A stretch of DNA of 49,483 nt, filler included, from Dimargaris cristalligena (taxonomy: Eukaryota): NCBI GenBank assembly GCA_003614675.1. It is 2 parts of 2 records of this genome, joined end to end, with 100 filler letters (N's around TTAATTAATTAA, not from the genome) between each part and the next. Parts side by side here need not be neighbours in the genome. Positions count along the whole stretch, not along the records: positions 24,795 to 49,483 come from ML002579.1; 1 more part is not named here. The stretch is one strand, 5' to 3'. The position numbers and the translations under genes are program-made. The notes under the pieces were generated by a model. It made no database searches. It worked only from the letters and a program-made list of their open reading frames with translations, and was not told where the DNA came from. This document shows positions 24,695-48,639 of the stretch, piece by piece (within the stretch, counting starts at the first letter, position 1; every line of letters starts with the position of its first letter).

Positions 24695-24794
24695 NNNNNN
24701 NNNNNNNNNNNNNNNNNNNNNNNNNNNNNNNNNNNNNNTTAATTAATTAANNNNNNNNNNNNNNNNNNNNNNNNNNNNNNNNNNNNNNNNNNNN
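24695..24794. other. Artificial contig-joining linker or assembly gap
   Basis: 44 N + TTAATTAATTAA (stop codons in all six frames) + 44 N, exactly 100 nt. Confidence 0.97.
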
Positions 24795-25000
24795 AATAGA
24801 AGGGAAAAAGAGAAAGCTATTTTTAACTGTACTTTGAACAGGGGCACAGTCGGGTCAGGGGCAGTGTGAATGCAGGGGTATCATCCGGTCAGGGGCAGGG
24901 GTGTATCACAGTCAAGGGTATAAAATATAATAATAGGAAAAATAATATAATAATGAAACTGGAGGAAAAATAACTATACTCATCAGGGGTGTACTTCCGA

Positions 25001-26560
25001 TAAGTGCAAAAAATGCATTAAAAATAAAAGTAAGTAAAAAATGTGGTAAGTTTACTATAGTGGGTTATATAGTTGAGGGAGGGGTAATATGGCACTATAA
25101 GGCAATAAGATGGGATGATCAGTGTTCTATATTTAGGAAGGATTAGGTGGGCTGACACTTTAGTTATTGATTTATATTTTTTAGTCATTCCTATTCTTCC
25201 CCTGCCCCTTGTATTTGAATATAACCCCACCTGTTTCCCAAATAGCTTACTCTTTAGCTTATAACTTTCCTTTCATTTTATTCATTCTGATAATTTATTT
25301 AATAAACCTATTCTTGTCCCTTTAAGTTCTATCTGTCCTATGGTACCTGGCCTTATCACCAGCCCATTGTAATAAAGAGGTGGAGTCCAGAAGGGGAAGG
25401 GTTATATAGTATAGGATGATCCTATAGTACCAGGGGTAGCCATGGGAAGGTTTAATATGGCACAATAAGGCCTAATAGAGATAGATACTAAGGTATCTGG
25501 ATTAAGGAGGATTAGATAGCCTGATAGGGTTAGAAGTAACAGTATATAAATATAGTATTATAGCTATAATCATATTACATGACTAAAATAAGATGTTTAT
25601 TGAAAAAAAATAGGAGAAAGAGAAATAAGGTTTTATATATTTGGGGGATACATTGTTAAGCTAATGGAGTTAGGCACTCCTGATAGGGAATATTTGTTCC
25701 TGGCAGTAAGTCATATAATAAATCTTAACTGAAATCTTTTTCTGTGGAAATTCCAGTGGATACTTTATACAAGACTATAAAACTATAAACATTATAGCAA
25801 ACTTTTGCCTTATAAAATATGGGTATTCTGCAATATATATATTGCCATCTATTATTCTGTGTTAACTGGGTTAGCCACTCTTAGTTTATCAAGAGTCCCA
25901 GAAATAGGCTTCTGGAACTAACTAAGGGGAATGTAGGGTTGGTATACTAGCATAAGCAACAGGTGCTCAGATAATAACTAATAAAAGTAAGGCCAAATAA
26001 GCAAAGACCTCATAGATTAATACACACCTATAGTTAATATATAAAGGATGTAAGTATATATAGTATTTATTAAATAAATTGGGGGGGGGGATAATAGGCT
26101 AAGGAACTAATAGGTCCCAATAGGGCCCTACTATATATATACTATAATAACTCCTGAGGGAATATCTAAGGAGGAATGCTATTAAGACTAATAAATAGGT
26201 AAATAGCTTATCTAGGAGCTATTTATATCTGGAAGAATCTAATGGTAACTTAAATATCCTTAAGGTTAGCCCTTAAGTAAGTAATATGAAGGTAGGGTCC
26301 GGGCTAAAGATGATATATAGTAATAAATAATGATCCCATTGCTCTGGGTGTAGTTATGGTAAAGGTAATATGCCATACTAGGACCTGATATATTCACAAT
26401 AAACCAGGCTAGATTGAGGTTGGTTAGTGGGGGTAATAATGAGCTAATAATATTGAGAAGGTGAAATAATGCATGAGTGACATAGCTTCAGATGGGAAAA
26501 TGAAAACTATAAATTAATAGTGTTTTGGATAAATAGTATCTGGGCACAAGTAATTGAAAC
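25001..26560. repeat. CpG-depleted, TpA-rich degenerate tract, probably a mutated repeat or duplicated segment
   Basis: No CG dinucleotide found by eye in 25001-26299 and only one more before 26560, whereas CG is common elsewhere in the window. No long ORF. Lies at a contig end. Confidence 0.55.
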
Positions 26561-26699
26561 ATCACATCCGGCAGTCAATAAGATTTGGCTTTAGATCTGA
26601 GTACAGGGAGGCTACTGGTGACAAATAGGAAAATCTTCTTGGTGGAATTTCCCTGCAATTACTGTGAAACTGCCAGCCATCCAAAGAACACTAATTGCA

Positions 26700-32600: not shown

Positions 32601-35600
32601 CTGGAAGGAGGGGTTTCCAGGTGCTTGGTGGTCAACAGTATCAACAAGACAAAAGCGAGTGTTATCTATCGAAATCCTCTCCAGGATCATCACCAAATGC
32701 CCGGTCGTAGTTAACAACCAAGCATCATCGAGTTGGGAAATCGTATACTCAAGGCGATCGAGTGAATTGGATAAGTCCATCGGAACGCATACGCCGCCTG
32801 CCAGGAGCACCCCTAGGTAGCTAAATATGAATTCGGCAGAGCGAGTGAATAGCAGGGCGGCCAAATTTCCGGGTTGGAACCCCTGGCTCTGAAGGGCCGA
32901 GGCAATGGAACGAGCGCGACAATACACCTCGGCATAGGTAAATTTGTGTATGGAGGTTTCAAGGGCGATGGCATCGGGGTGGGTGGCGATGTGTTGGGTA
33001 AACAGTTGGTGGGCCAGCCAGTGGCACTGGGGAAACTCACAACGGGGACCTTCCGACCATTGCCGGACCAGCCGGGCTTCCTCTGAGGGTAGGCTCATTA
33101 AATCCCCTACCAAACCGCCTGGCTGACTGACCATGGTTGACAAACAGTGGTCTAGGAACTGGCACAGGAATTTGGCATAGGTTTTATCGCAGTAGGTGGA
33201 TTTATAAACCAGGAGGTAATTAAGTCCGTCGCTGGTATCCGCAAAACTGAGGGTGTAGGCATATTCGGTATAATTCTGCCCATCCCGAGGTTGAATGGTA
33301 ATCTCAGCCTTAGAAGTGGGTACTGTTGCTGCCGGGAAATTATCATATACCACAAGTGAGTTGAAAGGCCGGGCCTCAGGGTTGGCCTGAGTCCATTTAC
33401 GAATATCCAAAAGACTGCAGTGCTCATACGCAGCCATATCAATGAAGAGTTGATTAACACCCTGGATGAACCCTGAAACCGTCTGCGTATAATCAAGTTG
33501 TACCCTAATGGGAAGGGTATTAATGGACATACCCACCATACCTTCAATCCCCGGAATAGGAACATTGCGGCCTGAGGTTAGGCCACCAAAAGTAACTTCC
33601 TGGGTCTCGTTAAGGTAATGGGCGAGGGTAAGGGCCCAGGTACTGCGTAATAGGGCGTTGAGGGTGACTTTCTGCTCGCGGCAGAAGGTTCGAAGGGCCA
33701 ACTGGCTCACTGATATTGCAGACTGATAGCTACCAAACTCAGACGGAGGAGCCTGTGGTTGGTGAATAGGGAACTGGATGGCCGGGGTGGGAATAGCCCC
33801 CGCGAGGTTGGCGGACCAGAAGCTCTCTAAATTCGATTGGTTCAGAGTCTGTAAATGGGCGATATAGGCCGAGAAGGGGGTACCAGGTGGGGATGAGCCA
33901 TGGTGGTACAGCTCGAGAATTTCGCCAAAGATGATGTTCTGTGACCAAGCATCCAGTACAGCGTGGTGGAAGGTGAAGAAGCAGAGGTGATGGTCGGAGT
34001 CCATAGTGTACAAGGTGAATCGAAGCAACGGCCCTCGGAAATCGAACCCCCGCTGGCGGTCTTTGGCAAAATAAGCTGTTTCAAGCTTGGACATATCCTC
34101 AACAGTACCCAAAGTCCGAGTACTCCATTCAATGTCACAATCGCGGGTAACCACTTGCAGGAATGCATGGCCAGGCATAGTGTCAGTCTGGAAAAACTTG
34201 GTACGTAAAGTAGCATGTTTCTGCGCGACTTCGACCCAGGCCTGGTAAAACCGGTTGACATCTAGAAGACCATCTACAACGAAAGATTGCTGAACCATAT
34301 ATGCCGATGGGTCCTTCAGGGTATTAATTAGGAACCCAAGCTGGAGGCTGGACACTGGTAGGACATCCACGATGTCATTTTTATCGACCCCAATCTGCTT
34401 AGCAATTTCTTGGGTCAGGGTATCTCGTAACTGTGGCTCTGCTTCGAGCCCAATAAGAGAGAAATTTAAGTATGTTTTTTCAAGGCCATTGCAGTCGGCG
34501 AGGGACTGACTCTCCAGAATTCCGGCCAACTCTAGCACATTTCGGGCCTGCAAAATCTGGCTGATCGACAGTAACCAGCCCCGACTGCGGCACATTGATG
34601 AAAAGCGAATAGCCATGATCGAATCCCCCCCTAAGCGCAGGAACGACGCTGAAGGTGTAATACAAGATGGGGAGATCTCGAATATGCCGGCTAGGAGTTC
34701 CTGAACAGCAATAAAAGTGGCAGTTAGGATGGTAGGGCCCATTTCTAGGGGATCATCCAGAGGTAGTGGTCGGGCCTGAAGTGCCTTGCGATCAGCTTTA
34801 CCCACCGTGGTCAGAGGTATGAGGTCCAACCCAACAATAAAATTGGGCACCATGTAGGTCGGTAGTTTGGTCGTAAGATGGGCCCAAAGTTCTGCCGTGT
34901 CAATATTATTAGGGCTTACATACAGAACCAACCGTGTCTCTATCACACAAGCCACAGCCCCCGTAACACCCTCCACATAACGGCTGGTGTTTTCAATTTC
35001 ACCCAACTCAATTCGGTAGCCACGCAGTTTGACCTGAAAGTCTTTGCGGCAAAGGTAATGTACGGTGCCATTGGGGAGCCAGCATGCAAGGTCGCCTGTC
35101 CGGTAAAGATTACCAGCCCCAAAAGGGTTGGGCAGAAAGGCCTGGGCGGTTAGGTGTGGTTGCTTCCAGTACCCGTCACTAATTCCGATGCCACCCAGGC
35201 AGAGTTCCCCCGGTACACCAATTGGGACCGGTCGCAATTGGTCATCCAGAATATAACCCTCGTAGTTGGCCAACGCTCGGCCGATTGTGACAGGCTCAGC
35301 TGGCTGTACTGAGTAGCTATGGCTGCTTATTGACGCCTCAGTCGGCCCGTAATTGTTGTATAGCCGGACATGGGTGCACCAGCGTTGAGCCACATTGCTG
35401 GGAAGCGGCTCACCGGATACTGCCACCTGGGAGAGGTTAGGGAAATCCTGGGGATCGAGGGCAGCCAGAATTGACGGAATCAAACAACAGGTAGTGACCC
35501 GCTTTAAGGTGTCAATGATATTACCGTCTTGTAGCACTAGAGTGCCCCCGGCGTGAAATACACCAAAAATCTCATTGACGCATACGTCAAAGGAGATGTT

Positions 35601-38600
35601 CATGGCCTGAAGCATACGGGCAGAGGTGTCCAGCTGCATCACCTGGTCATAGGCCAATATATAGTTTAACAGGGATTCGTGGCGAATAGGTACTCCCTTG
35701 GGCCGGCCTGTAGTTCCTGAAGTGAACAGAATGTACATGAGATCCGATGATTGGCGGGAGGTGTCCGGTTGGAAATCCGATGTGGGCATTGAATCGAACG
35801 GTACGTCATTGGCGACTAGGACCCGAGATTGAATGACACCCAATTCGTCGAATGCAGTTTGTTGATAAACTGCCGTAGTAACTAGCCATGCATTTTCTAA
35901 CACTCCAATTGTATACCTCAGGCGATCAAGAGCATTGGTGGCATCCATGGGGATACAAACACCCCCGGCCAATTGAACGCCCAAGTAACTAAAAATAAAT
36001 TCAGCCGATCGGGTGAACAATAGGGCAGCAAAATCCCCAGGCTGAAAACCCTGTTTCTGGAGGGCAAGGGCCATACAGGCGCTATGGTGGTACACTTCGG
36101 CATAGGTGAACTTTTGATCGGAGGTCTCTAGAGCAATAGAATCGGGTCGGGTGGGAAGGTGCTGGGTGAAAAGTTGGTAAGCCAACCAGTTACCCTGGGG
36201 GAACTGGTAGCGGGGGCCCACGGACCACTCCTGTACCAAACAAGCTTCATCGGATGGAATACTCATAAGATCCTGTAGGGTACTTGTCGGCTGGTCAACC
36301 ATTAATGCGATACAGTGATCCATGAACTGGACCATAGATCTGGCGTATGCCTGATTGCAGTGGGAAGATTTATACTGCAAATTGCAGATAAGCTGGCCAT
36401 GGTGGTCAGAAAAAGTGGTAGTATAAGCGTACTCTACAAAATTTTGACTAGCGCGAAGTTCAAATCCAATATCCGGATTCTTGATGGAGGTTTGCGATCC
36501 AGGATAACTGAAATAGACCATGAGCGAATCGAACAATTGAACCTCGGGATCGACGTGGGCCCATCGGTTGATGTCAATTAGGCCACATTGCTCGTAATCA
36601 GTCATCTTGAAGGATAGCTCATTGATCTGTCGTATATATTGTGAAACCGACAGATTCATATCCAAATGAACTCTGACTGGGAGCGTATTAATCGCCATAC
36701 CTACCATTCCCTCGATACCCGCAACAGGCACATTACGACCAGAGGTAAGTCCCCCGAATGTAACCTCCTGTGATTCGCTGAGGTACCAGGATAGGGTCAA
36801 TGCCCAAACGCTACGCAATAGGGAGTTGAGGGTAATCTGCTGGTTACGGCAGAATAGCTGCAGGGTAGGCAAATCGGTGGACAGTGGAGTACCGTAGGTA
36901 TCATATTCTGTAGATGGGGCATCGGTAGAAAACACGGGGAACTTTACGGCCAGCGTCGGTTTGGCCGCCTCTAAGTTATCTTTCCAAAACTGTTGTAGTT
37001 TGGTTTGGTCTGAGGACTGGAGGTGGGCAATATAGTCGGTAAATTGGGTGCATGGGGCCAAATCTGCACCATGGTATATATCAACAAGTTCAGCCAAGGC
37101 GATATTTTGTGACCAGGCGTCGAGGAGAGCATGATGAAAAGTGAAGAAGCACAGGTGTTGGTCGCTGTCGGCAGATGTGCGATACAGGGCCATCCGTAGC
37201 AACGGCCCATCGAAAGTAAACCCACGTTGGCGATCCGCAGCAAAATAAGACTTCTCCAGCTGTTTCAAGTCGCTGTCAACTCCTTCAGTAACCACTGTCC
37301 ACTCGATATCGCATTGGCGACCAACCACCTGGACGAAGGTGTGATCCGAAATAGAGGGCAACTGCATAAATTTGGTACGGAGAATGCTGTGACGCTGCGC
37401 TAGCTGGTGCCAGACCTGCCGAAGTCGGTCAGTGTCGAGAGGGCCTGATAGCACCAACGACTCCTGGACCATGTAGGCACTGGGGTCTTTAAGGGTGTTG
37501 ATGAGAAAGCCTAGTTGTAAACTGGAGACTGGTAAAATGTCGACAATATACTCCCGACCGACGTGTAATTCCGACGCAGCCTCCTGGATAACCGAGTCAA
37601 TATTATTCGCTAGCCAATCCGCCGTTCCCAAAAGAGAAAAAGGCTGATAGTTGATGGGTGCGGCATTTTCCGGTGACTGGATTGGTCCAGGGCGTTCAGC
37701 CCCCAAGTCGGCTAGTGCGGTGATGGAAGCCGATTTAAATATCTGGTCGACTGATAGTTGGATACCACGCTCTCGGCACAGCGAAGTTAAGCGGATGGCC
37801 GAGATGGAGTCCCCACCTAGTTTAACAAACGATAGGCCAGGATTAATCTGCTCTAAAGGCAGACTTAAAACATCAGACATGGCCATAGCTAAGGCGTGTA
37901 GAGTTTTACTTGCCGGGGCCGAGGGACTATCGGAGGACTCCGGCTGGTGCTGGTCAACCAGAAAATTAGTGAAGTGGTTCCGAAGGAATTGGACATCACA
38001 CTTGTGATTTGTGGTCAGGGGAACTGTGGGGAGACCCAATATATAGGTGGGTACCATGTAGGACGGTAGGTGGTTTGCCATCACGGACCGAAGATGATCC
38101 TCATCGGCGTGGGTTTCGGGGAACACGTATCCAACTAAAAATGAACCATGGACGAATACGGTGCAGTCCTGGACACCGGGTTGACTCAAAAGGACGCTGC
38201 GAACCTCATCCAACTCGATCCGGAACCCACGGAGTTTAACTTGACTATCAATACGACCCAGACACTCGACCTGGCCATCAGGTAACCACCGGCCCAGATC
38301 ACCCGTATGATACAGCATTCCATCGCCGGTGAAGGGGTTTACTACGAACTTGAAAGTATTGAGATCGGGTCGATTTATGTAGCCCTGACTGACACCAATA
38401 CCGCCGATTACTATTTCACCAATGGCCCCGATAGGAACCAGTTGCATGCTGGGGTCCAAAATGTAACACTCGTACCCAGCCATGGGTCTGCCAACAGGAA
38501 TTGGCCCGGACCGGGGAACTGGGCAGGATAGGCAAACAACAGTAGTTTCAGTTGGACCGAATGCATTGATTATATCGACGTATTCCAACCAGTTGTCGGC

Positions 38601-41600
38601 TACCTTTCGGGGTAGGGCTTCACCACCGACAACTAAGTGATCCAGGTTGGTAAAATCGCGCGGGTCAAGGGCGGCAATGATGGACGGGAGTAAAATTGTT
38701 TGGTGCACTGTTTTCAGGGTTCCTGGAAGGTTATCGCCACAAAACACTACCGTCGAGCCGTAACATAGGGGCATCAGAGAGCTGAGGAAAAATCCGTCAA
38801 AACCAGAAGATAGGCCATTCATGGTCCGTGTCCCTGGCCGTTTGAAGATCTCAAAGCTCGAATTGGTCAATAAATTAATGAGAGACTGATGCTGGACCAT
38901 GACACCTTTGGGTAGTCCAGTGGACCCTGATGTGAACACAATGTAGGCTAAGTCTTTGGGCTCAATTGGATACTTCAAACAAAAGTTAGGCACTAGTTCA
39001 AAGTCAAGGATCAGGTCACTGATAGGGATTGCCTCAGGCCAGGCCGTGTCGTTACCCGATGCGTTAACAATACACGTACACTCGGCTGTATCGGCTATGT
39101 ACTTCTGACGAGCGACCGGGAGTTTTGTATCGATAGGGATATAAATAGCACCGACGCACCAAATGGCTAGAAAGCACATGATGGTATCAGGGTGATCGGA
39201 TACCACGACACCGATTTTATTTCCCCGCTTCACCTGAGCTTTCTGGAGGCGTTTCGCCAGGCCCCATACTCGCCGGGCCAATTCGCGGTAGGTTTGCTTT
39301 TGAGTGAATATTTCGGTAGCAATCTGGTCGGGGGACTGCCAAACCCTATCAAAAAATAGCTCCAGTATATTCAATCTGGGGTTCTCCCGAATGATCGGGT
39401 TAGGACCACCCAAAGCAAACTCGTGTAAGAGAATTTGGGTCTCAGAGGGGCCAACCATGGGTGCAGCAGACCAATTATGTTTTGAAACAACAACCGCGTC
39501 CACGTAAAATACGAAATTGCGCAGAATGTGGTCCACGGTATCGTTATTAAAGATGGCGGGATTGAACCTTAGTTGGCACCGGGGGATATTACCATGGGAG
39601 TTGATAACTGCCTGCAGATCATAGGGAAAGAACGTTTGGTTTGACTGGGATCGGACGATTTGAACGCCGGTGGTTTCGTCAATCCCAAGTGGAGATTCAA
39701 ATACGAGGCTCACTCGGGGTAGCCCAGATATACGATGGTAACTAGGAAGCCCCAGATGGGTGACCAGGGCATCAAGCGACGGGACGGTGTGAAACGACGA
39801 GTCTTTCAGTTGATGGGCCAATTGCTGGGTCAACCTCGAAAGGTCTTTCGGTAGATCGCCAGCGACTCGAACAAGTTTCGATAGCAATGAATAAGGAGCT
39901 GACCAACCAGGCGACCCTGTGGCCGAACCTGTTTGAGAATGACCGACATCAATCAGCAAGTCCTCTTGACCTGTCAGTCGCCGCAGGAACGCGACAAAAA
40001 GGGCCAACCAGAGGTCGCATGCGCGATCTTGATCATCTGCTGCCAAGTCAAATAGGGCAGTGCCAAACTGGCTGCCAAGTTCCATTTCTATGTAATCAGA
40101 GTTAAATGTTGGTGAGAGAGGACGCTTTCGGTCGACAGGCAGGCTCAAATCGGTTGGCGGATCCTGAAGAAGTGTGGTCCAATATTTGAAATCGGGCTCT
40201 GTAAAATAGGATTCCGAGGCGGAAACCTCGTCAATTACATCGCAGGTAAGGCCTATGGGCGTATTCACAATCCGACGGGCAAGTTCTTTTACAATGTTTT
40301 CGGCGAAATTAGAATGGCCAGCCATTTCGTGGACACGAACGCATACAGACGACGCCATCGAACCCGGTATGGCAGTAGATGCTTGGTACAGGTCGACCTG
40401 TACGAGAATACCCTGGGCTGGGTCAAGGCGCACTTCTTCCGAAAAATTAGAGTCTGCATATGAAGGCTGAATCGCTAAAACCCGGCGTGTGACGACGCCA
40501 ACCTGTACATAGGTGAGAATACGGCAACCCAGGACACCCCTTTCTGAGTAAAACTGGCACCGCAATGTACCATACTTGGCCAAGATTGAGTCCACCGCCA
40601 GCTGGACATTTTGCAATTTAAAGGGGACAATTGAAGTGATTGAATAATGGTGGTAGAATTTCTCCAGGCTGCCACCCAGATGGCTGAGGGACCAGATACG
40701 CTGTTGGTGGTCGGAAATAGACAGGCGGCGCTGGTATACTGACTGTGTTCCAGCAGTACAGCCAAAGTCCTCTTTGACATTTTTCTTAGCCCCGACGACT
40801 TCATGCCCATCTTTTCGAGCTGAAATTTCCCTGGCTAAAGAGGGGAGGTCGCTATGCTTAAACAAACTACCCAGGCTTAGCTCCATACCAAATCTCTGGT
40901 ATATCCGATACCGAAGTATCTCTTGCTGAGCCAATGAGGCCCATGCAATGGAGTGAATAAGTGGAGTGGTAGTTAAATCTGAGCAATCCTGTTGGTCACT
41001 GGAATACAGCTCATTCACTACCACAGTTAACCACCATTCGATGTCAGATACAAGGGGGTTTGCGCGTATTGGCAATGCCGTAATGTAGGTGAGGATAAAA
41101 CTGTGGGCGTCTTCTACCGCGGCATCAGCGATATGGGGGAAAGCCTGAGTGGGAATAATAGCATGGGGAACGAGGGTCGAGGGGATGTCATGTGAGGCTA
41201 CAGCAGCCTGTAAGTCGGCGAGTTCGGAACCTGATACATTATTCACCAAAACCACCAACTGGTCCCTGGGTAGCAGTAAAGCTCGAGGTGACTTAGCCCC
41301 TGCTCTGGATAAAGCATGCTCCAATACTCCAAGGTGCACATGCTGGCCTTTAATGACCACCTGCTGTTTTTTGGGACCTAAAATTTGCACCGAGTTATCC
41401 GTTTCCTGATAGGCGAGGAGGTGTTTACCATTGGGGAGTGGTCTAAAACCAATCTGTGGATTTACGAGGTCCAGGCGGCCTACAGCCCCCCGGGGACAGC
41501 GATGACCATAGCAGTCCAATACAACTGGTGACCAACTACATAGGCCGGTTTCATTTACGGGCAAGGTGAGCGACTCCAACTGACTGGGTACCACACACTG

Positions 41601-41645
41601 ATAGCCATTGAAGATATATTCGATAAAGGCCAGACAGGTAACCGG
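26700..41645 (-). CDS. Multimodular nonribosomal peptide synthetase: (partial dA-dT-dC)-A1-T1-C-A2-T2-C-A3-T3-E-C-A4-T4
   Basis: Intronless ORF of at least 4964 aa; the frame is open up to about 41714 and the true start is unresolved. Four A3 motifs (TSGSTGLPKG ~38920, TSGTTGRPKG ~35710 and ~32540, TSGSTGTPKG ~27975). Four carrier motifs (GGDSI ~37810, ~34625, ~31455; GGNSL ~26890). C motifs HHALLD ~37130, HHAVLD ~33960, HHAILDG ~29390. E domain with HHFTVDFISW ~30890, EGHGR, RTVGWFT and FNYSGRF. Confidence 0.97.
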   Translation of the reverse strand, partial: PVTCLAFIEYIFNGYQCVVPSQLESLTLPVNETGLCSWSPVVLDCYGHRCPRGAVGRLDLVNPQIGFRPLPNGKHLLAYQETDNSVQILGPKKQQVVIKGQHVHLGVLEHALSRAGAKSPRALLLPRDQLVVLVNNVSGSELADLQAAVASHDIPSTLVPHAIIPTQAFPHIADAAVEDAHSFILTYITALPIRANPLVSDIEWWLTVVVNELYSSDQQDCSDLTTTPLIHSIAWASLAQQEILRYRIYQRFGMELSLGSLFKHSDLPSLAREISARKDGHEVVGAKKNVKEDFGCTAGTQSVYQRRLSISDHQQRIWSLSHLGGSLEKFYHHYSITSIVPFKLQNVQLAVDSILAKYGTLRCQFYSERGVLGCRILTYVQVGVVTRRVLAIQPSYADSNFSEEVRLDPAQGILVQVDLYQASTAIPGSMASSVCVRVHEMAGHSNFAENIVKELARRIVNTPIGLTCDVIDEVSASESYFTEPDFKYWTTLLQDPPTDLSLPVDRKRPLSPTFNSDYIEMELGSQFGTALFDLAADDQDRACDLWLALFVAFLRRLTGQEDLLIDVGHSQTGSATGSPGWSAPYSLLSKLVRVAGDLPKDLSRLTQQLAHQLKDSSFHTVPSLDALVTHLGLPSYHRISGLPRVSLVFESPLGIDETTGVQIVRSQSNQTFFPYDLQAVINSHGNIPRCQLRFNPAIFNNDTVDHILRNFVFYVDAVVVSKHNWSAAPMVGPSETQILLHEFALGGPNPIIRENPRLNILELFFDRVWQSPDQIATEIFTQKQTYRELARRVWGLAKRLQKAQVKRGNKIGVVVSDHPDTIMCFLAIWCVGAIYIPIDTKLPVARQKYIADTAECTCIVNASGNDTAWPEAIPISDLILDFELVPNFCLKYPIEPKDLAYIVFTSGSTGLPKGVMVQHQSLINLLTNSSFEIFKRPGTRTMNGLSSGFDGFFLSSLMPLCYGSTVVFCGDNLPGTLKTVHQTILLPSIIAALDPRDFTNLDHLVVGGEALPRKVADNWLEYVDIINAFGPTETTVVCLSCPVPRSGPIPVGRPMAGYECYILDPSMQLVPIGAIGEIVIGGIGVSQGYINRPDLNTFKFVVNPFTGDGMLYHTGDLGRWLPDGQVECLGRIDSQVKLRGFRIELDEVRSVLLSQPGVQDCTVFVHGSFLVGYVFPETHADEDHLRSVMANHLPSYMVPTYILGLPTVPLTTNHKCDVQFLRNHFTNFLVDQHQPESSDSPSAPASKTLHALAMAMSDVLSLPLEQINPGLSFVKLGGDSISAIRLTSLCRERGIQLSVDQIFKSASITALADLGAERPGPIQSPENAAPINYQPFSLLGTADWLANNIDSVIQEAASELHVGREYIVDILPVSSLQLGFLINTLKDPSAYMVQESLVLSGPLDTDRLRQVWHQLAQRHSILRTKFMQLPSISDHTFVQVVGRQCDIEWTVVTEGVDSDLKQLEKSYFAADRQRGFTFDGPLLRMALYRTSADSDQHLCFFTFHHALLDAWSQNIALAELVDIYHGADLAPCTQFTDYIAHLQSSDQTKLQQFWKDNLEAAKPTLAVKFPVFSTDAPSTEYDTYGTPLSTDLPTLQLFCRNQQITLNSLLRSVWALTLSWYLSESQEVTFGGLTSGRNVPVAGIEGMVGMAINTLPVRVHLDMNLSVSQYIRQINELSFKMTDYEQCGLIDINRWAHVDPEVQLFDSLMVYFSYPGSQTSIKNPDIGFELRASQNFVEYAYTTTFSDHHGQLICNLQYKSSHCNQAYARSMVQFMDHCIALMVDQPTSTLQDLMSIPSDEACLVQEWSVGPRYQFPQGNWLAYQLFTQHLPTRPDSIALETSDQKFTYAEVYHHSACMALALQKQGFQPGDFAALLFTRSAEFIFSYLGVQLAGGVCIPMDATNALDRLRYTIGVLENAWLVTTAVYQQTAFDELGVIQSRVLVANDVPFDSMPTSDFQPDTSRQSSDLMYILFTSGTTGRPKGVPIRHESLLNYILAYDQVMQLDTSARMLQAMNISFDVCVNEIFGVFHAGGTLVLQDGNIIDTLKRVTTCCLIPSILAALDPQDFPNLSQVAVSGEPLPSNVAQRWCTHVRLYNNYGPTEASISSHSYSVQPAEPVTIGRALANYEGYILDDQLRPVPIGVPGELCLGGIGISDGYWKQPHLTAQAFLPNPFGAGNLYRTGDLACWLPNGTVHYLCRKDFQVKLRGYRIELGEIENTSRYVEGVTGAVACVIETRLVLYVSPNNIDTAELWAHLTTKLPTYMVPNFIVGLDLIPLTTVGKADRKALQARPLPLDDPLEMGPTILTATFIAVQELLAGIFEISPSCITPSASFLRLGGDSIMAIRFSSMCRSRGWLLSISQILQARNVLELAGILESQSLADCNGLEKTYLNFSLIGLEAEPQLRDTLTQEIAKQIGVDKNDIVDVLPVSSLQLGFLINTLKDPSAYMVQQSFVVDGLLDVNRFYQAWVEVAQKHATLRTKFFQTDTMPGHAFLQVVTRDCDIEWSTRTLGTVEDMSKLETAYFAKDRQRGFDFRGPLLRFTLYTMDSDHHLCFFTFHHAVLDAWSQNIIFGEILELYHHGSSPPGTPFSAYIAHLQTLNQSNLESFWSANLAGAIPTPAIQFPIHQPQAPPSEFGSYQSAISVSQLALRTFCREQKVTLNALLRSTWALTLAHYLNETQEVTFGGLTSGRNVPIPGIEGMVGMSINTLPIRVQLDYTQTVSGFIQGVNQLFIDMAAYEHCSLLDIRKWTQANPEARPFNSLVVYDNFPAATVPTSKAEITIQPRDGQNYTEYAYTLSFADTSDGLNYLLVYKSTYCDKTYAKFLCQFLDHCLSTMVSQPGGLVGDLMSLPSEEARLVRQWSEGPRCEFPQCHWLAHQLFTQHIATHPDAIALETSIHKFTYAEVYCRARSIASALQSQGFQPGNLAALLFTRSAEFIFSYLGVLLAGGVCVPMDLSNSLDRLEYTISQLDDAWLLTTTGHLVMILERISIDNTRFCLVDTVDHQAPGNPSFQPDHTRTSSDLAYIVFTSGTTGRPKGVPVRHESLVNYTMANCKLMELDSDCRFLQLMNISFDGCLIEIFGAFHSGGTLVLQDGDMIDRLGKVNTCVLIPSVLATLDPVDFPNLTKVVAAGEALPSSVAYNWCPRVHLFNVCGPTEITIVSHADRIQLGYPVTIGRPLPNVQGYILDNKLRPVPIGVPGELCIGGIGVTEGYWKQPELTAKAFIPNPFGPGKLYRSGDLVCWLPDGRVQFISRKDFQIKLRGYRIELGEIENTVSSVGGVSNAVACVTQKQLVLYVAPAGVDISILHHQLAQKLPPYMVPNFIVTLDHIPLTAVGKADRKALQALPLPAVDPDTASDIENHSWVFLLMREALASALNIKPQRVIPTDSFLQLGGDSISAIQFSNRCKRLGLHLSVADILKYPRLSVMEQHAHLMVLDDALPVEYLDPVGPVPFTAVQRYALEEYQFINQFNQSTLIQCCQELSQETVRAALMALFTHHDMMRVQLTRIKDHWHQQVLPAPVDSPGWLDRFVVMETATIVQDQYPTWVSQMQQKISIECGPILGCGLLILNGQQHLYLTIHHFTVDFISWRIILEDLEALLTNQPLPGKTTPFREWATKIHAYSQTLSDSVWPDVSPFDPAQGIPLDYRLPPPNEFGEHPPVTYHSAQFIRTALGCPLSEDLYAKIAPAAGVSPQEFLVASLLLALQSTFNISKVKLEMEGHGRRPWDPSIDISRTVGWFTSIYPVEFDLTRQHDYSYVGSDLEVLALTKQRLRSVPNHGLPYSLLRYLKGFPSHTTPYSNQEAQGISPTSFTDWNRIVFNYSGRFENLESPDAFWKARNMNANWTDDWSKNEHFNQVLSVACDYDAKTGLILSVTFSNELHHMSTIQKLVDSWRAILENLIHACHSNEAPSIVTTSDFPLVCLTEGDFAKVVDNELLPLKLTTADIEDIYPCLPLQEGLLFATLQDHSAYMVQLTFTISGSLDIPRFQQAWIQAADVYTILRTRFIMGAGSQANRNLQVVTKSFNPQWIIGDWQGGDIATLEAHHIQSERLTGFPPQEPMVRLGLFQIDNQRHSFIISVHHAILDGWSNGPLINSVLQYYSERTPAAAPHLPFKEFVTHVLAKDQETAQSFWADQFADVEAPSLLTEPHHQLAGDIHPNDPEYYGRVLGTISNLTSVEKFAQNLEVTMSSVLRASLAAVLQRYTGSDNPVFGTIVSGRNVPLDGIENMVGLCINTVPCCIPLGTNLSVQQVLQNVHANSVVMYDYEHCRLTDIHRWSGLSSEQPLFNILFVLENYPEPPTDPTLPIQIEVSGGWDPTDYALAIAVYTDGDELKYNLTYRRLDFGDTFAARFADHFSQAVRSMINMDPLTSFGDVELFSAAERQELLQTFATNDQPLPNEPVHASFQRLAQSAPDLIALVQGNHQFTYAQLNAAADRLADTIKQLTDCGPDHIIAILANQSVELIICQLAIWKSGAAFVCLVPEYPTDRKHFILKDTQSIALLGRPEHLADWEDSPIPIVPVDGISLLNDAQPTPAGYATVSPSSLAYVVYTSGSTGTPKGVMIEQGSVSSFIRGFGAAFVTNQDVIVPVIATPTFDMSILEIWSTLSFGGTSLIHTGDFEATLQKVTQAYMVPSLLSSFTPLDFPRLKRVVVGGDVLTSSTVQVWGAAVDLFNLYGPTECTIATHFTRLFPGHTISVGSPGPNATCFILDSKLRPVPIGATGQLYLGGTGVARGYLNQPELTQEKFITYPLTDERIYQSGDLARWLPNGQVEYLGRIDNQVKLRGFRIELGEIESALEGHPLVEQACAILQGNAHLVGYVVPPTGQTATILDSLRTRLPPYMVPSVLVELSTWPLTRVGKIDRKALPKYDFTLSESVGAIQEYTQAEAKMVALVAEVLDVESSAVSLGGTFFQLGGNSLTAIQLVSRCRHLNLNLVLADINRQNTIYHLAKLAVAQSAAIDTFDFNEDGGYESSPETS

Positions 41646-41799
41646 CTGCTTTGTTAGCTGGGCTACATTGAGCTCGGTGGGTCGGGCAAGGTCACAGAGA
41701 GCAATTTGATAGAGTTAAGGCATCACATACGTAATCCGAATATGGTATCCCTCGATTCGTAGTTGATGCCAAAGTCCAAAATCAAAAATAAATGCTTAC

Positions 41800-42708
41800 C
41801 AGATGATGCTTGTTGAGAAGGATTAAATCCGTGTATTGGGCTTGCATCTTAGCGGTATAACTCGTGTCCTCGTAGCCGGTGAAGTTGACACAGTCCACGA
41901 CCGTAACGATGGAATCAAGGCGGAATCCCTCGTCGGCCATTTCCCGGATCTGCCAGGCAATAGGGGCTGTGGCGTCCGGTCGTAGAGTTGGTATATGGGC
42001 AAACCAAAAATCAGCATAACATCAGCACATGGGCATAACTAAGCTAGATGTTGGGTATATAAGGATTAGTAACGAGGCCTCTCTAGTTTCAACAAGTCGT
42101 AGGAGTGGCTTACCGGGGAAAGCGGAACCGCTAGTTTCAATGATAATACGGTGCGGCTGGTACTTGTCTAAAGTAGATGAGGATCATTTGGCATAGATAA
42201 TTGAGGAGGGAGTTAGAGTTAAAGGCCGGAATTACTTTTAGATATGGTGGTTGGTGTACCCGGCCGGGCCAAGATGCTTTCCATTTGTAATGGCATAGGA
42301 AACTTGGGTACGGAGTAAAACAACGGAGGCGGGGGAATCGAAACATACCCAACCCCAAAATCCCACCCGACAAATAGTGCGGTACTCTATACCGACGAAG
42401 TCAACCAACTACCAGCCAGTGCACTTACCGCGTAGTTCCAACAGCGCGCTTTTCATTTGACCAACCAGCACACAGCAAAGACACCCGTTGACCATTTCCT
42501 GCACCGCGATATTACTTTCGCGCATCAGCGCGCTATCCGTTTCGGCGTCCCCGAATTCATTTTTAAGCACCACCACCCGATAGTCCCGGGGCAGTTGTTT
42601 AAGTAGCGACAGGATAAGCGTGGTTTTACCGGCACCCAGAAAACCGGTAAATACCGATACTTGAGTAGTGGTGGCGGCTACGGGGTTGGTGGTCTCAGTA
42701 GAAGGCAT
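41800..42708 (-). CDS. COG0523/CobW (ZNG1-related) G3E metal-chaperone GTPase, G domain only, 167 aa; exons 42708-42429, 42167-42114, 41966-41800; C-terminal part absent
   Basis: GFLGAGKTT (G1), NEFG, GCLCC metal-binding motif, IIIETSG (G3), LDSIVTVVD, MQAQYTDLILLNKHH (G4 region). Three canonical GTAAG donors with consistent phases. No CobW C-terminal exon follows; the NRPS frame begins within about 90 nt. Confidence 0.9.
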
Positions 42709-43549
42709 GGTGGCGAGATTGCGAAACCGACTAGAAGAAGCGGGGCAAGGAATGCGTGGGTTGAGATAGGGAGGGGAGAATATCGTAAACTACGGAATGG
42801 CGAGTGTCGGGTACTTGGAACCGGCCTATCGAAAATAAAGGCGAATGTAACTATGGGATTGAATATACGTCAGAATGAGACAACAGACATGCAAGAATGA
42901 AACGAAACTAATAGGTAGTAGTAGTAAAAACCCACAATAGGAGCGAGTAAGCGAGAGCGAGGAAGGGGCAATGACGAAAGACGCTGCTGCCCTGGACACC
43001 AAGCCCAATAGGTATGTGGTCCATACAGTTGGGGCTGTTGGTTTGGGAGGGTAAAGTAACACCATCCCAGCTGGTGCATCCCTATATCCGGCTGGCCATC
43101 CCGCAATTATCCGCCAGTATGTATTCCCTTAGCAACCACTACCATTTACACTACAGTATCCAAAGGGTATTAAGATTAAATTAGGCACATCAAATTCGGC
43201 AGCTAAATAACGCACATTTAGTATATATTTCGAGTTGCCCTGGTGCATTCCACTGTGGGCGCATATCCAAATATTACCGATTTCGTCACCCTTGTAAGAT
43301 GGTCTCATTATTAAAGCCACGTATACTCGAAATGATATTCCCTGGACCTCATGTTTGACAGAAACATACCAATTTTTTATAAATATAAATATAGCACCAG
43401 GTTACAGAAATGGCTTTGGGTTGTATAAATCAGCGAAGAAGAGGGGGACACCAGAAAAAACCATCATCATCCCCCGGTCGTTCCAGACGACACCAAAGGG
43501 GCTCTCTCCTCCACCCAACACACATTAAAGGGGAAAACCCCTTAATTTC

Positions 43550-44390
43550 TTAGGCGATAATCTTCCACGTCACCTGGGAACGACCGGCCTTGACGAATTT
43601 CGGACCTAGGGCATTGGCTGCCGATTGACTCAGCACGACTTCACCCACCTCGCAGTCCTCGCAAGTATCCGTAATCTTGGCCTGTACCGATGTGCCGAAC
43701 ACCGACTGAACGCTCATCATTTTGAAACACTTGGGGTTGGTCCCCGGGTAGATATCGTCGGCCATTTGGCCCTTGTTCTGTTGTACCGAATGCATGTAGT
43801 GCGGATGATATCCATAAACAATAATAACAGTCAATTAGCAATTGGAAATTAGCATCATTGGGCAAAAGGGTGATTGGTATTAAAGAAGGGGAGAATCAAG
43901 CTGTTGTGAGGTCAAGATTATTCTGGAAGCCCAATACCGGTAAATTTGAGGTTGCTTATTATAGACATACTCCACAACGACGGTAGACGGCTGTCCAGTT
44001 TCAGTGAGAATACACGGTGAACAATAGAATCAAATCAAATAGGTCTAAACTTACAATAGATACAGTTAAGGTTGCTAGCTCTTCCAAAGTTCCGCACGAC
44101 CCGACGTCCTTGGGACCGGCGTCTTCGAAACTAGCCTTGCCGGCAATATCCTGGCCTACTACCACCTCGGCCACCACCGGCACCACGGGGGCCGGTGCGA
44201 CGGGAGCGGGAACGACCGGTGGGGCCGGCGCAGGTGCAGGGACGGGGGCGACGACTACGGGGGCTGGGGTTGGGTTAACAGGGGCAGCGGCAGCCACATC
44301 CTGGCGTTTTACCAACCCGTTGTTTGGCAGGGAGCTGGCGTTGGCCAACGCGGCCAAAGTGGTAAGAGCGGCGACAAGGGTAAACTTCAT
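43550..44390 (-). CDS. Secreted RlpA-like double-psi beta-barrel (barwin/loosenin/expansin-like) protein, ~187 aa; exons 44390-44055 and 43777-43550
   Basis: Signal peptide MKFTLVAALTTLAALANA, dibasic KR site, Pro/Ala/Val-rich linker. Then GKASF...GSCG...VSI|NKGQM...NPKC...SVQAKITDTCEDC...LSQSA...VTW, the typical fungal DPBB pattern. Phase-0 GTAAGT...CAG intron. Confidence 0.85.
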
Positions 44391-45831
44391 TGTGAAGATG
44401 AACGGACTCGAAGAAATAAGGGAAGTTAAAAGAAATATAGGGGAACTTTCGATATATTTTATGTATAAAAAAAGGGGTAATAGTGATACAAATACCGGAT
44501 GTCTCCAAGAATTATAGAGGCATTCACAAATAGTTGACTAATCAAATTGCCGACAAATACCAAATCAATCGTTAGAAATGGCGGTGCCTTGGTGGAAGAG
44601 AAAGAGAGAAGGGGAGAGTGGTGGTGGTGGTGGTGTGGTATCGGTGGAAAATGACTAGTAAACGACTTGGTGGTATGGTAATCGAAGAGGCTGCTGTCTG
44701 CTCAAATAGGCCGTCCTTGACCTCCCCTTTATACCTCCCGTCCCGACCCCCCCCCTAGTTCGCACTTTTCTTTCGTATGCCTAGAGAGACGAGGACTACA
44801 GGAGGAGAGAGGAGAGTAAAGTAAGGGGGGCAGCCCGAATAATGATAGACCATCCCTATAGCAACGCAAATCACTAATCTAAAATATGTAGGGGACCCGC
44901 AAACCCTAATAGCTGGGACGGGGCCGTCGACTCCAGCCCGCTACGACGACGATGCCATCAGGAGGGGTATCCGATGCTTGGGGATGGTGGGTAAATGATG
45001 TTCCGGCGGTGGGCACGGGCAACGAAGAGGGCGGTTGAGGGAGATTTCGTATCCATCGGTTTAATTTAAGGAAGTTCATGTACTAATAATAGTTTTTGGC
45101 CCCGGGGCATTTCCTTCTCCCCCTCTCCCCTCTTTGGCAGCCTTCCTTCCCAACCCCCTCTCTCCACGCTTCCCTCAACTCTAGGAGAATGGTGACCCTT
45201 GTGGTGGGCTAAATTAAAGAGGTTCCCCATCATTAGTCGCTTGGGCGCACTGGTCAGCGAAGTGTTCTGTATTGGCAGCCAATCTCTACGGGTAGTATGG
45301 GTCTAACAATGAACTAACTAACTACATGGGCACCCGGACCGGTTTATTTTAATACCACCTTTCCTGTCGCACCACTATTGTCGCCATCGATACTATTCCC
45401 TCAGTACGTTATGGACTCAGACGGTGCGGGGACTGAGAGGGGCTCCTGCCATGGTGACTCGTTTAATTGCTCATCTATTTCTCATATTTGTGAGCTCTCC
45501 GTTTAGTAAGCCCCCATTCGTATATCTACGAGGCCGAATTATAGGTGATTTACATTAACGGTAGAGAGAACCCCCCCTCCCTCCCTCTCTTTTTCCAATC
45601 TTAGGCAGTTTACCCCCAGCCAGGTCGATGGCCAGTTGCTTGCTAAATTTGTGCATCGCATTTTATTAGAAATCAATTGAGCGAGGTCGACGGCTTAACA
45701 AGATCACCAAAGGGGTTTTTTTAAATAATAATAATAATAATAATTAAAAGAAAAATAAATATATAAATCTAATACTAGTATAGAACCTCTCTTTATACAC
45801 CCAAATAAAGCACCACCCATTGACCAAATTA

Positions 45832-46803
45832 TTAAGCAGTCGCCATCAACTGCAATTGGTCCATCAAACTATCTAATTCGCTGATTTTTTGGCTCACGGT
45901 CGCCAGTCGTTTGGTCATTCGGTCCATTCGGTTCCAAGTCTCTACGGCCTTGCCAAAATTCTGCAGCTGTTCACCGGTATTCATCCGGTCCACATCCCTC
46001 TCCAGGTTAAATTCCTTGTATTCGGCGTGTAGGGCGGCCGCGTCTTTGATGTTCAGGTCATGGGGCAGATCGCTAATCTCCGCCCGGTTGACGGCCATGT
46101 ATTCTTTGACGTAGGCCTCCATCTCCTGTTTGGCGTCCATCCCTTTGCGCCATTGCTGGCAAAGTGATAAGGTACAGTATTTCAGGTAAATGTCCGTCGC
46201 CCCCGGGTAGATTGTGGTCAATTGGGTACCGTATGTCTGGAGCAACTGGGCCTGCTGGTGGAGTTGCACGCCGGTGGTTTCCGTCATGAGGGTCCGGGCC
46301 AGCGTGGCCAGTTCCCGGCGTTTGGTCTTATCGTTGGCCGTGTCGCTGCTATAGGGTAGTTGCCGCGGGTCGGTCCTCGGTGTAGTTAGGCATTGGTAGA
46401 GATCCATTTCGATGCGATTGATGATTGACTGGAGCCCAATCATGGCCGAATCGAAGCGAAGCCCCAGGGTGATAAAAGTCTGAACGTCATTGTTGATCAT
46501 TTTAAAAAGGGCTGCAATGTCGCTACTAGTGATTACACCCTCTTGTAATTCCGCCAAGTAGGTGGTTTTGGTCGCCCATTGATGGTCAACCTGGGATAGT
46601 TGTTGGGCTTGGTCGATAAAATCCGTCATTTTCGAAAGAGGGTCGGGACTGGCGCGTTTCGGATATTGGGAGCTGGTGGGGTCGGCGAGGGGTCGTTTGA
46701 GAGAATTGGGGTCATCATTCATGGGAAAAGGCCGGACATTAACGAAAGTCGCTAATGCAACCCCCAGGGCTAACCAAGTGGTGTTAAGTTTAATTGCCAC
46801 CAT
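45832..46803 (-). CDS. Secreted, probably helical orphan protein, ~323 aa, intronless
   Basis: ACCATGG start at 46803 within the 409-aa ORF. Hydrophobic N-terminus MVAIKLNTTWLALGVALATFVNV and an amphipathic, coiled-coil-like composition. No family recognised. Confidence 0.8.
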   Translation of the reverse strand: MVAIKLNTTWLALGVALATFVNVRPFPMNDDPNSLKRPLADPTSSQYPKRASPDPLSKMTDFIDQAQQLSQVDHQWATKTTYLAELQEGVITSSDIAALFKMINNDVQTFITLGLRFDSAMIGLQSIINRIEMDLYQCLTTPRTDPRQLPYSSDTANDKTKRRELATLARTLMTETTGVQLHQQAQLLQTYGTQLTTIYPGATDIYLKYCTLSLCQQWRKGMDAKQEMEAYVKEYMAVNRAEISDLPHDLNIKDAAALHAEYKEFNLERDVDRMNTGEQLQNFGKAVETWNRMDRMTKRLATVSQKISELDSLMDQLQLMATA

Positions 46804-48639
46804 GGTGTTGGGGAAATAGTATAGGTGAGAAGAGACGGGGGGAGTGGCGATAGATGGTCTACAATTTAGTACACTATAAATTAGCAAAATATAAAAGGCC
46901 GGCGAGTGCTTTACACCGCCAGATACAATTGAGAAAATGAGAATAGGGGAAGTATTATGGGAAATAGAGTGTGGCATGTCCATATATATATATATAATAG
47001 GGGAGATGAGGGGGCCCAAATTGGCGTTATCCCTCTTATAATCGGGCCACCATAGCTCCAACGGCGACTAGCTTGGCCTGTTCCGCCGACATCGGAAACC
47101 GAAGCTATCCAATGAATAGCCACCGCATTGCATTTGTGCGAGGGTGGGGTTAATTCCGTGATTCATTGATAGCCTTAAGAGGAAATTCTTTTGGGAGGCG
47201 AATTCATGGACTGGTGTGGTGCCTTGGCCTAATTCTCCACCAAATGGTCAAGACCACACAAAGAGGGGGCTATGGCTAATTGTGGCTGCACGTGAATAAC
47301 CTTAACCCCCCCTTCCTCCCCTATCTATGTAAGCGGGCCAGTTAAGAGGAAGTAAGGCAAGGGAGGGCACCATTTAATAATGTATGGAACGAAATCCCAT
47401 CAATTTTCTGTTTAGGGCAAATTATATGGAGTTTGTACTGGGGATTCCAGCCGAGGGGGACAGTGTGCAGGCTATGTGTGGCAGGACTAGCGACGGTTTT
47501 GTTGGTGCGACGGGGAACTCAGTCCCTTGAGTTGGGGGAATGTGCGGCCTTTAGTTGGAAACATCGGTTTATATGACTAGGAAACCCGACGGTAGTGCAG
47601 GTAAGTATTTCCAATGTATTCCGAAATTTGACTGGTTTATATTGCGTTGGCCATTATATATAATTTCCCTTCAAGAGTGTGAGTATGTGGTATGTGGGTT
47701 GTTGGCCTATAATTCCTACCCGACTCTGTATAGCGGCCGACGGCTTGAACATCCGTCCGCGACTGTGCTCCGTAATTCCGCATAGTAATAGCCCCTTCCC
47801 CCAACTGATAAGTGGTATCCCACTTTTTCTCTTTGGGCTCACCAAGCATCTCTTCTATTCAGTATCAATGTGAGATGGTTGGTTATAGGAGACGGTTCCA
47901 ATAGAGAAGAGATCTTGTAAGGTGGTATTAAATTCACGTGACTACCGGGCCAAAATTTAAGTGATGCTCTGGGCACACTCCCGCCACCCTGCCTACCCTT
48001 CTGATTCTGGTGGACCAAATTTCGGCTCCCAGGATAAAGTCTAAGAGGTGAATGATTGGAGCGACGGACTTAGGGTAGCTGTTTAAGGTGAATTCATTAA
48101 GGAGACGTGGGAGGAGAGGGTGCTTTGCGAAATAGTTGCGGTGGACTCTGGTCTGGCTTGGGTTAGTAGTGGGGAGTATATATTTCCAAAGGGTGGTAGG
48201 GTCGCCGATTAGCAGATGATACATCCCGTCGGTCGATTCAGAATCTTCGGGCTGATCGACCATGATAATGACAGGCGGCGGGAGAGGAGGAAACGCCCCT
48301 TAAAGTGGAGCCGCCTGCATCTGAATGGGGCCATTATATCTATATCTACGCGCATGTATGTGTCCTGGAAGGGATTGTCCAGAGATAAATGAAGCTTCAA
48401 AATATCTAAAATCAAGGCAATCCCCTGCCATTGGGCTATTTTATAGTTGGTTCCACGGAGCCTTTTTGGCTCTTCAGCATCAAAAGGGTTCTTTATGGAA
48501 GCGACGATAGATATAGCTCTGTCGACTTCCCGCATTCCTTTCCAACCAGCCCAAGTCCAAGTCCAAGCAAAGCATATAACGTGCTGGGCTTCTCGCACCT
48601 GAACTGTGTAGATTCCCTCAAAGTCTCTTGCCTTTCTCA

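Follow-up and report, generated by a model that had tools for sequence, protein, structure and literature searches.

An apparent CobW-NRPS gene fusion in Dimargaris cristalligena very probably results from falsely joined fragments of two separate genes

Introduction

GTPases of the COG0523/CobW family are characterized by a P-loop (GxxGxGKT) and a metal-binding CxCC motif. In the Dimargaritales they occur as stand-alone proteins of 359-378 aa (orthologues P0121-P0125). The large multimodular NRPSs P0389 (7,347 aa, H4R33_000570) and P0001 (4,836 aa, H4R33_004279) of Dimargaris cristalligena are collinear, at 37-48% identity, with the NRPS frame described here. Among the listed papers that mention both COG0523 and nonribosomal peptides, no fusion of the two appeared as a topic in titles and abstract openings.

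Two distant segments joined at short complementary stretches have been described as chimeras of multiple displacement amplification (MDA). According to the report by Lasken & Stockwell (2007, PMC1855051), the junctions of such chimeras typically carry 2-21 nt of microhomology, and 69 of 475 chimeras were in direct orientation (the 15% class), while 85% were inverted.

The window analysed here, a stretch of 49,483 nucleotides of D. cristalligena DNA with filler included, carries a CobW gene and an NRPS gene next to each other on the minus strand. The original prediction proposed that both are spliced in frame into a GTPase-NRPS fusion of ~5150 aa, or that the NRPS has captured the CobW promoter. 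As a fallback, it rated an amplification or assembly chimera, with both partners truncated, as equally plausible. Our analysis indicates that fragments of two different genes have very probably been joined falsely here, and it traces the apparent fusion to a rearranged DNA molecule detected in a single sequencing library. The features of the locus are compiled in Table 1.

Table 1. Features of the CobW-NRPS region, in coordinates of the window.
Feature	Position	Strand	Evidence
NRPS gene, 3' part, 5,004 codons	26700..41713	-	Pfam, core motifs, hhalign, collinearity with homologue interiors
False junction 2 (X1 only)	40509..40519	.	11-nt block ATAGGTGAGAA, present identically at 46821-46831; the X1 contig passes directly from 46820 into this site
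False junction 1	41710..41713	.	4-nt overlap (TAGA on +) common to both true sequences
CobW intron 3, first 86 nt of the real intron (donor GTAAGC)	41714..41799	-	X2-X4 CobW-side contigs match to 41710
CobW exon 3, ends ...LILLNKHHL	41800..41966	-	PF02492 profile 106-153/180, 3.1e-07
CobW exon 2 (DKYQPHRIIIETSGSAFP)	42114..42167	-	flanking introns both phase-1; read from sequence
CobW exon 1 (Walker A GAGKTT, CLCC motif)	42429..42708	-	PF02492 profile 2-76/180, 3.6e-22; ATG at 42708
Junction 2 partner site, CobW-locus side	46821..46831	.	sequence identity to 40509-40519

Results

Exons 1 and 3 of the CobW gene reached 79.3 and 30.6 bits against PF02492, above the curated Pfam cut-off of 20.7, which places the gene in this family. 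Translation of exon 1 displayed GFLGAGKTT and GCLCC, both common to the aligned orthologues. Exon 1 is 80-86% identical to P0121-P0125, and the stretch over exons 2 and 3 with their intron is 53-54% identical in tblastn; P-loop, CLCC and the NKH[HQ]L motif of the clade are all retained. Residues 2-93 of the orthologues aligned to exon 1 and residues 92-167 to positions 42168-41794. In contrast to the orthologues, the window copy covers residues 1-167 only and is devoid of the remaining ~195 residues. It breaks at profile position 153/180 of PF02492, corresponding to orthologue residue about 165-167, so that the window copy contains neither a complete G domain nor the C-terminal region. Orthologue residues 168 to the end gave no tblastn match anywhere in the window (best other E 0.12), and Pfam likewise detected none of the C-terminal exons in it, just as the original prediction had stated. 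The missing C-terminal part reflects the false join and not the gene of the organism.

The NRPS partner is truncated as well. Its frame is open from 41714 to a stop codon at 26700 and is preceded by a TAA stop (41717-41715), 1 nt beyond the junction. Pfam revealed four AMP-binding, four PP-binding and five Condensation stretches with the core motifs of a repeated A/T/C organization, in the order degenerate A-like C-terminal part with T-like domain, partial C, A-T, C, A-T, C, A-T, E-like C, C, A-T and stop. An N-terminus or initiation module of its own was not found within the window. The first methionine is residue 277 of the ORF, or residue 254 counted from 41645; the claim that no ATG occurs until residue ~237 was thus roughly right, with a somewhat different position. 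In all seven homologues checked (P0001, P0002, P0389/P0241, P0242, P0243, P0246 and P0247), the point at which the frame opens lies ~1,560-2,050 residues deep, inside a degenerate adenylation-like domain. ORF residue 3 aligned to residue 2053 of P0001 and ORF residue 15 to residue 1577 of P0389. The window ORF begins with a degenerate A-like/T-like block and a partial C domain that both proteins contain internally; they differ from it in the first ~1,560-2,050 residues, which the ORF lacks, and the ORF exceeds P0001 by two A-T-C modules. The adenylation-like nature of the opening is supported by hhalign, which aligned ORF residues 57-299 with the segment from A6 to T in the A-T units of the same ORF (95.6%, E 1.3e-8). 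For residues 1-330, Pfam reported 0 families, and blastp against the ORF's own modules gave no match (best E 0.93).

All sequence signals of the proposed splice are present. The CobW coding region ends in ...LILLNKHHL followed by the phase-0 donor GTAAGC at 41799-41794 on the minus strand. A branch-like GCTAAC (41658-41653) and a CAG (41648-41646) precede an exon that would start at 41645 in the NRPS frame (PVTCLAF...), and two other in-frame CAG acceptors would give exon starts at 41657 and 41597. Within the 155 nt with which the NRPS frame opens, seven of nine AG dinucleotides are in frame, because each of them closes a codon for Gln, Glu or Lys. As most AGs are codon ends, an in-frame acceptor behind a phase-0 donor is expected in any coding DNA at this place, and the match of donor and acceptor is no more than chance. 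Moreover, only 86 nt of the 154-nt "intron" belong to the CobW intron; the other 68 nt are conserved coding sequence of the NRPS, with an alignment to P0001 that starts at ORF residue 3. The partners are not whole proteins joined at domain boundaries; both are cut inside domains. The same architecture was not found in relatives. PF02492 occurred in none of 120 NRPS matches among those listed, and a CobW orthologue matched 0 of 271 stored proteins >1,500 aa at E<=1e-3; longer relatives of CobW were searched up to 2,000 aa.

Contigs from four public DNA runs (X1-X4) were aligned to positions 39500-44500. In three of these runs (X2, X3 and X4, from samples S2 and S3 and studies P1 and P2), the NRPS-side and the CobW-side contigs diverged at 41710-41713, inside the proposed intron; the alignment used Logan contigs and not raw reads, and since such contigs drop rare variants, the join could be present in X2-X4 as a rare variant. 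Each of the three runs exhibited one contig reaching from 39500 or 40768 to 41713 and a second one from 41710 onward, and the two loose ends, one before 41710 and the other behind 41713, had the same sequence in all three. Past the break, the contigs entered DNA unlike the window on both sides, extending for 4,122 and 7,973 letters in X2, for 9,687 and 2,541 letters in X3 and for 139 and 76 letters in X4. A search with 30 letters of each true continuation found neither of them anywhere in the window. In the 30 letters beyond 41713 the NRPS frame stays open, and three of ten residues of a hand translation match P0001 in register. The original prediction had named reads that break or are chimeric at the junction as evidence against itself, and the contigs of X2, X3 and X4 part at exactly this place.

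The alternative that X2-X4 carry an inserted mobile element flanked by a 4-nt target duplication was considered and rejected. As judged by eye, the 30-letter ends are not inverted repeats and carry no TG..CA, and the NRPS-side end carries on the reading frame. Additional loose ends private to the X4 library were observed at 40768 and 42858; a search for them in the window found neither.

Among independent libraries, continuity of the DNA over junction 1 was not observed. The join was bridged in one of four runs, X1, and this run alone contained the sampled words of the window completely (1.00, compared with 0.98, 0.97, 0.92 and 0.76 in other runs); no RNA run was among those listed. X1 is possibly the source of the window itself, so that its bridging contig does not count as independent support. 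The contig matched the window without a mismatch at a word depth of 17.3, so that in X1 the join is carried by many molecules rather than by one aberrant read. However, even this contig exits the NRPS at 40509 and resumes at window position 46820, and thus contains only 1.2 kb of the NRPS. Its loose end before 40509 is an exact copy of window 46791-46820, for which 0 occurrences are expected by chance. Junction 1 carries 4 nt of microhomology and junction 2 carries 8-11 nt, and both junctions are direct, with plus strand joined to plus strand. The contig measures 6,321 nt and the interval 40509-46820 measures 6,312 nt, which fits a closed 6.3-kb loop; we infer the closure from this agreement and from a comparison that, of the contig's initial 2,074 letters, covered the last 30. 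X1 had no cover over 39500-40508.

X1 and X2 come from the same study, carry the same organism label and differ by a single letter over the aligned 5 kb. At this position, 40511, the window has A, as it does at 46823, and X2 and X3 have T. The residue aligned at the corresponding codon was N, H, Q or R in four of four aligned homologues and Y in none, with two more giving no match. The A/T difference could be a plain polymorphism.

These data bear directly on the possibility that the window is correct, which would mean that the CobW promoter and three exons are joined via the 154-nt intron to 4,981 NRPS codons from 41645. The splice signals and the bridging X1 contig are in line with it. In contrast, CobW together with the whole NRPS was contained in no run, three of four runs diverged at the join, part of the supposed intron is conserved coding sequence, both partners end inside domains, and fused homologues were lacking in both searches (0/120 among the matches listed and 0/271). 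We consider this possibility extremely improbable, and by the criterion that the original prediction itself had set, the ~5150-aa fusion enzyme and the promoter capture are refuted.

The junctions resemble those of MDA chimeras as described in PMC1855051 in that junction 1 is private to one library, several private junctions occur in the sample set, and the 4 nt and 8-11 nt of microhomology fall within the typical length. They differ from them in that no second segment is inverted, both junctions being direct, and in that the two junctions would close a loop; the library field in the record of X1 is empty.

Alternatively, the rearranged molecule might be real in vivo, as a recent, microhomology-mediated 6.3-kb circular or tandem DNA in the cells of sample S1, to which the CobW locus would contribute 5.1 kb and the NRPS 1.2 kb. 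Small circles that arise at microhomologies are known in eukaryotes, and the depth of the X1 contig, its identity to the window, the direct junctions with their microhomology and the length fitting a closed loop would all suit such a molecule. Nevertheless, X2, which is so closely matched to X1, and X4 are without the join, and the other private loose ends of X4 are as expected for artefact-prone libraries. The contigs themselves do not separate an in-vivo from an in-vitro origin. Taken together, an in-vivo rearrangement appears very unlikely. If it were true, at most CobW(1-167) would be spliced in frame to ~380 NRPS codons of the degenerate A/T block, which still would not produce a giant fusion enzyme.

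A further reading, compatible with a false join, is that CobW and the NRPS are genuinely adjacent in the genome, with CobW lying upstream on the same strand, and that the join represents a deletion. The lost DNA would then comprise the 3' half of CobW, a spacer and the 5' part of the NRPS, >9.7 kb in total. Orientation and order of the fragments are as a deletion would leave them, and the two junctions link the same regions. In PMC1855051, 348 of 475 MDA chimeras joined segments <10 kb apart, but 58 of the 69 direct ones were >10 kb apart or intermolecular. The NRPS-side contig of X3 and the CobW-side contig of X2 extend 9,687 and 7,973 letters past the break and do not reach the other side. 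In both species that have the two genes (2/2), the locus tags are not adjacent: they are far apart in Dispira parvispora (CobW 000786, NRPS 001232), and in Tieghemiomyces parasiticus CobW 003386 stands against NRPS 004381, 005675 and 009610, a weak test in both cases as these NRPSs are distant, paralogue-level matches of ~29-31% identity. From D. cristalligena, the species with the best NRPS homologue, a CobW orthologue was absent among the best 120 of 1,382 matches of 164-2,000 aa and among 18 matches of 51-163 aa. On balance, true neighbourhood of the loci seems unlikely.

Discussion

The apparent CobW-NRPS join is very probably an artefact and represents neither a real gene nor a new enzyme. 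The break in three of four runs, the second foreign junction in the only bridging contig and the truncation of both genes are direct observations. Together with the collinearity of the NRPS with the interior of its homologues, they agree with the fallback of the original prediction, an amplification or assembly chimera with both partners truncated; the original interpretation is therefore partly supported.

In our preferred model, the two fragments are unrelated. The first would derive from a COG0523/CobW GTPase gene of the ordinary stand-alone type, of which the 5' 45% remains up to a break in the third intron; the second would be the 3' part of a larger NRPS gene, 5,004 codons long and truncated within a degenerate adenylation-like domain. 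In X1, the join exists as real molecules, within a small rearranged DNA that takes ~5.1 kb from the CobW locus and only 1.2 kb from the NRPS and would be closed by the second junction of 46820-46831 to 40509-40519. If X1 was amplified, as we assume, this molecule is most likely an in-vitro chimera from amplification or library construction. The assembler would then have left the true NRPS locus via the 1.2 kb that it has in common with this molecule and entered the CobW locus, a path that would yield an adjacency of CobW and the whole NRPS shown by no run.

A genuine fusion of a metal-chaperone GTPase to a 5,000-residue NRPS would have been without precedent in its architecture and would have hinted at a fungal metallophore under metal regulation. 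Instead, the contig should be split at 41710-41713, and gene models or cluster calls in which the CobW gene and the NRPS are linked should be discarded. Similar joins may exist in other long contigs of the assembly. The NRPS of the window is to be treated as a 3' fragment, and the full gene of D. cristalligena is expected to be about 1,500-2,000 codons longer.

CobW and NRPS sequences part at the join

The run search gave five DNA sequencing runs under one organism label and no RNA run; contigs of four of them (X1-X4) were compared over 39500-44500. X2, X3 and X4 come from samples S2 and S3 and from studies P1 and P2; X2 and X4 share a sample. All sampled window words were present in only one of the five runs, X1. 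The NRPS-side contigs of X2, X3 and X4 matched the window up to 41713 and ran on into non-window DNA, and their CobW-side contigs matched from 41710 with other DNA on the far side. Both 30-letter loose ends were the same across the three runs. The true CobW-side and NRPS-side sequences share four nucleotides, TAGA, at 41710-41713, and neither true continuation was found elsewhere in the window.

Over the compared 5 kb, X3 differed from the window by six substitutions and a 57-nt deletion and therefore represents a slightly divergent strain or haplotype; the break at 41710-41713 occurred there despite these differences. The deletion spans 44185-44241, and single-letter differences include 40511, 42556, 43745, 43838 and 44046. 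By our reading, the change at 42556 falls on the third base of CobW codon 51 and leaves the amino acid as it is.

The original prediction, a CobW (COG0523) GTPase spliced in frame to a giant NRPS, is contradicted by this parting of the contigs and by rearrangement of the X1 contig itself. Divergence on both sides in X2, X3 and X4 is the kind of break at the junction that it had said would refute the fusion. The proposed loss of the C-terminal CobW exons was confirmed by tblastn, and the underlying CobW and NRPS features were borne out by sequence and Pfam.

Features of the CobW/NRPS join and its two partners
Feature	Position or content	Strand	Basis
CobW-type gene start	42708	-	sequence reading
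CobW exons 1, 2, 3	42708-42429, 42167-42114, 41966-41800	-	authors' reading of sequence
Branch-like GCTAAC	41658-41653	-	sequence
CAG acceptor, upstream of 41645	41648-41646	-	sequence
CobW-side extension past 41710	X2 7,973; X3 2,541; X4 76 letters		contigs
NRPS-side extension past 41713	X2 4,122; X3 9,687; X4 139 letters		contigs
NRPS layout, first half	degenerate A/T block, partial C, A-T, C, A-T, C	-	
NRPS layout, second half	A-T, E-like condensation domain, C, A-T, stop	-	

Both genes are cut

PF02492 (cobW, Pfam) matched CobW exon 1 at profile positions 2-76 of 180 (3.6e-22) and exon 3 at positions 106-153 (3.1e-07). Exon 3 ends in ...LILLNKHHL, followed by GTAAGC at 41799, and an unspliced transcript would reach a stop six codons past this exon. 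Five orthologues from Dispira, Dimargaris and Tieghemiomyces (P0121-P0125; 359-378 aa, 80-86% identical to exon 1) matched the window at residues 1-167 only; tblastn gave no window match for their remaining residues (best other E 0.12). These orthologues read NKH[HQ]LV[TSN]E..., so NKHHL represents this clade's variant of the motif, and from this alignment the missing next exon should begin V[TSN]ER. The canonical G4 motif is NKxD; in this CobW clade it is replaced by NKHH or NKHQ (window 41800-41815, minus strand), a form kept in all five Dimargaritales orthologues.

Position 41645 is in frame with the 5,004-codon NRPS open frame (41714 to the stop at 26700). Seven of the nine AGs within the first 155 nt of this frame are likewise in frame, and in-frame acceptors are unremarkable since each of these seven closes a Gln, Glu or Lys codon. 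The contig break falls within the proposed 154-nt intron, which therefore consists of 86 nt of real CobW intron and 68 nt of NRPS coding sequence.

Homology placed the beginning of the NRPS frame deep inside larger proteins: residue 3 pairs with residue 2053 of P0001 (4,836 aa; 37% over 636 aa) and residue 15 with residue 1577 of P0389 (7,347 aa), both Dimargaris cristalligena homologues, and the rest is collinear with P0389 (48% over 3,661 aa). The block matching the frame's start lies about 1,560-2,050 residues deep in seven of seven homologues checked. No Pfam family was found in residues 1-330, and residues 57-299 aligned to the stretch from the A6 region to the T-domain end of a normal A-T unit (hhalign 95.6%, E 1.3e-8), so that the frame starts partway through a degenerate adenylation-like domain. 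No stop interrupts the frame in the 30 loose letters past 41713, and their translation by hand is identical to P0001 in register at three of ten residues.

The NRPS fragment (26700-41713, minus strand) terminates directly past its fourth T domain; Pfam found no thioesterase, reductase or terminal condensation domain in its last 604 residues, and P0001 has the same type of ending. The domain preceding the last C carries HHFTVDFISW, which we take to be the E-type (epimerisation-like) form of the condensation motif. Modules 2 and 3 (C-A-T each; residues 1350-3446, about 31300-37700, minus strand) share 57% identity over 1,042 aa, with long identical stretches, a likeness that suggests a putative internal module duplication; P0001 lacks both modules. 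Just downstream of the stop, 24001-27000 is AT-rich (GC 0.33-0.39; the NRPS has about 0.50).

Among the matches listed, none of 120 NRPS relatives carried PF02492, and CobW relatives of 2,000 aa or less stand alone except for two odd Smittium gene models. A CobW orthologue matched none of 271 stored proteins above 1,500 aa. By its best protein matches, the source of the DNA belongs close to the Dimargaritales. Elsewhere in the window, ordinary eukaryotic genes are represented by ORFs matching a Ras-family GTPase (12260-12820, plus strand; 1.7e-49) and a protein-tyrosine-phosphatase (4944-5336, minus strand; 2.4e-07).

The X1 contig is rearranged

The bridging X1 contig (6,321 nt, word depth 17.3) matched 40509-44500 and beyond. 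Its letters preceding 40509 are an exact copy of window 46791-46820, and an 11-nt block, ATAGGTGAGAA, is common to 46821-46831 and 40509-40519. The window span 40509-46820 measures 6,312 nt, 9 nt less than the contig. These lengths suit a closed loop with about 5.1 kb of CobW locus and 1.2 kb of NRPS, an inference made with 30 letters visible out of the first 2,074 of the contig. Such a molecule could be real circular or tandem DNA in cells of sample S1, though this is unlikely. As the contig exits the NRPS at 40509, CobW is joined in X1 to only about 400 NRPS codons, and no run showed it joined to the whole NRPS. The second junction site, 46821-46831, lies in a 409-codon ORF (45835-47061, minus strand) in which no Pfam family was found.

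At 40511 the window reads A, as at the equivalent position 46823, and X2 and X3 read T, which suggests that reads from rearranged molecules entered the window consensus. The difference may also be plain polymorphism, the codon position being variable among homologues. Loose ends private to X4 occur at 40768 and 42858, two places that X2, from the same sample, crosses without a break; such junctions are therefore not rare in these libraries.

Origin of the join

The 4-nt overlap is crossed by a contig assembled from 31-letter words, so the join is present in real X1 molecules and cannot be put down to the assembler alone. CobW and NRPS could also be true neighbours joined by a deletion; it would need to be longer than 9,687 nt, and synteny hints on their neighbourhood are weak and negative. 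The join most likely arose as a chimera, by template switching or a similar event, while the DNA was being amplified or the library prepared. Among the chimeras of multiple displacement amplification (MDA) described in PMC1855051, over 70% of junctions begin at complementary stretches of 2-21 nt. Three points fit a textbook MDA chimera poorly: both junctions here are direct, a class with only 69 of 475 in that source; X1 holds the joined molecule in abundance; and no library type is recorded for X1, so that amplification of that library is assumed.

The fallback reading of the original prediction, a chimera with both partners truncated, agrees with the contig break and with the homology of both genes. 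The CobW-NRPS fusion is refuted and is not a real feature: what the window holds is part of a COG0523 GTPase gene of the ordinary kind (42708-41800 and some of the intron that follows) and roughly the 3′ two-thirds of a large NRPS gene.
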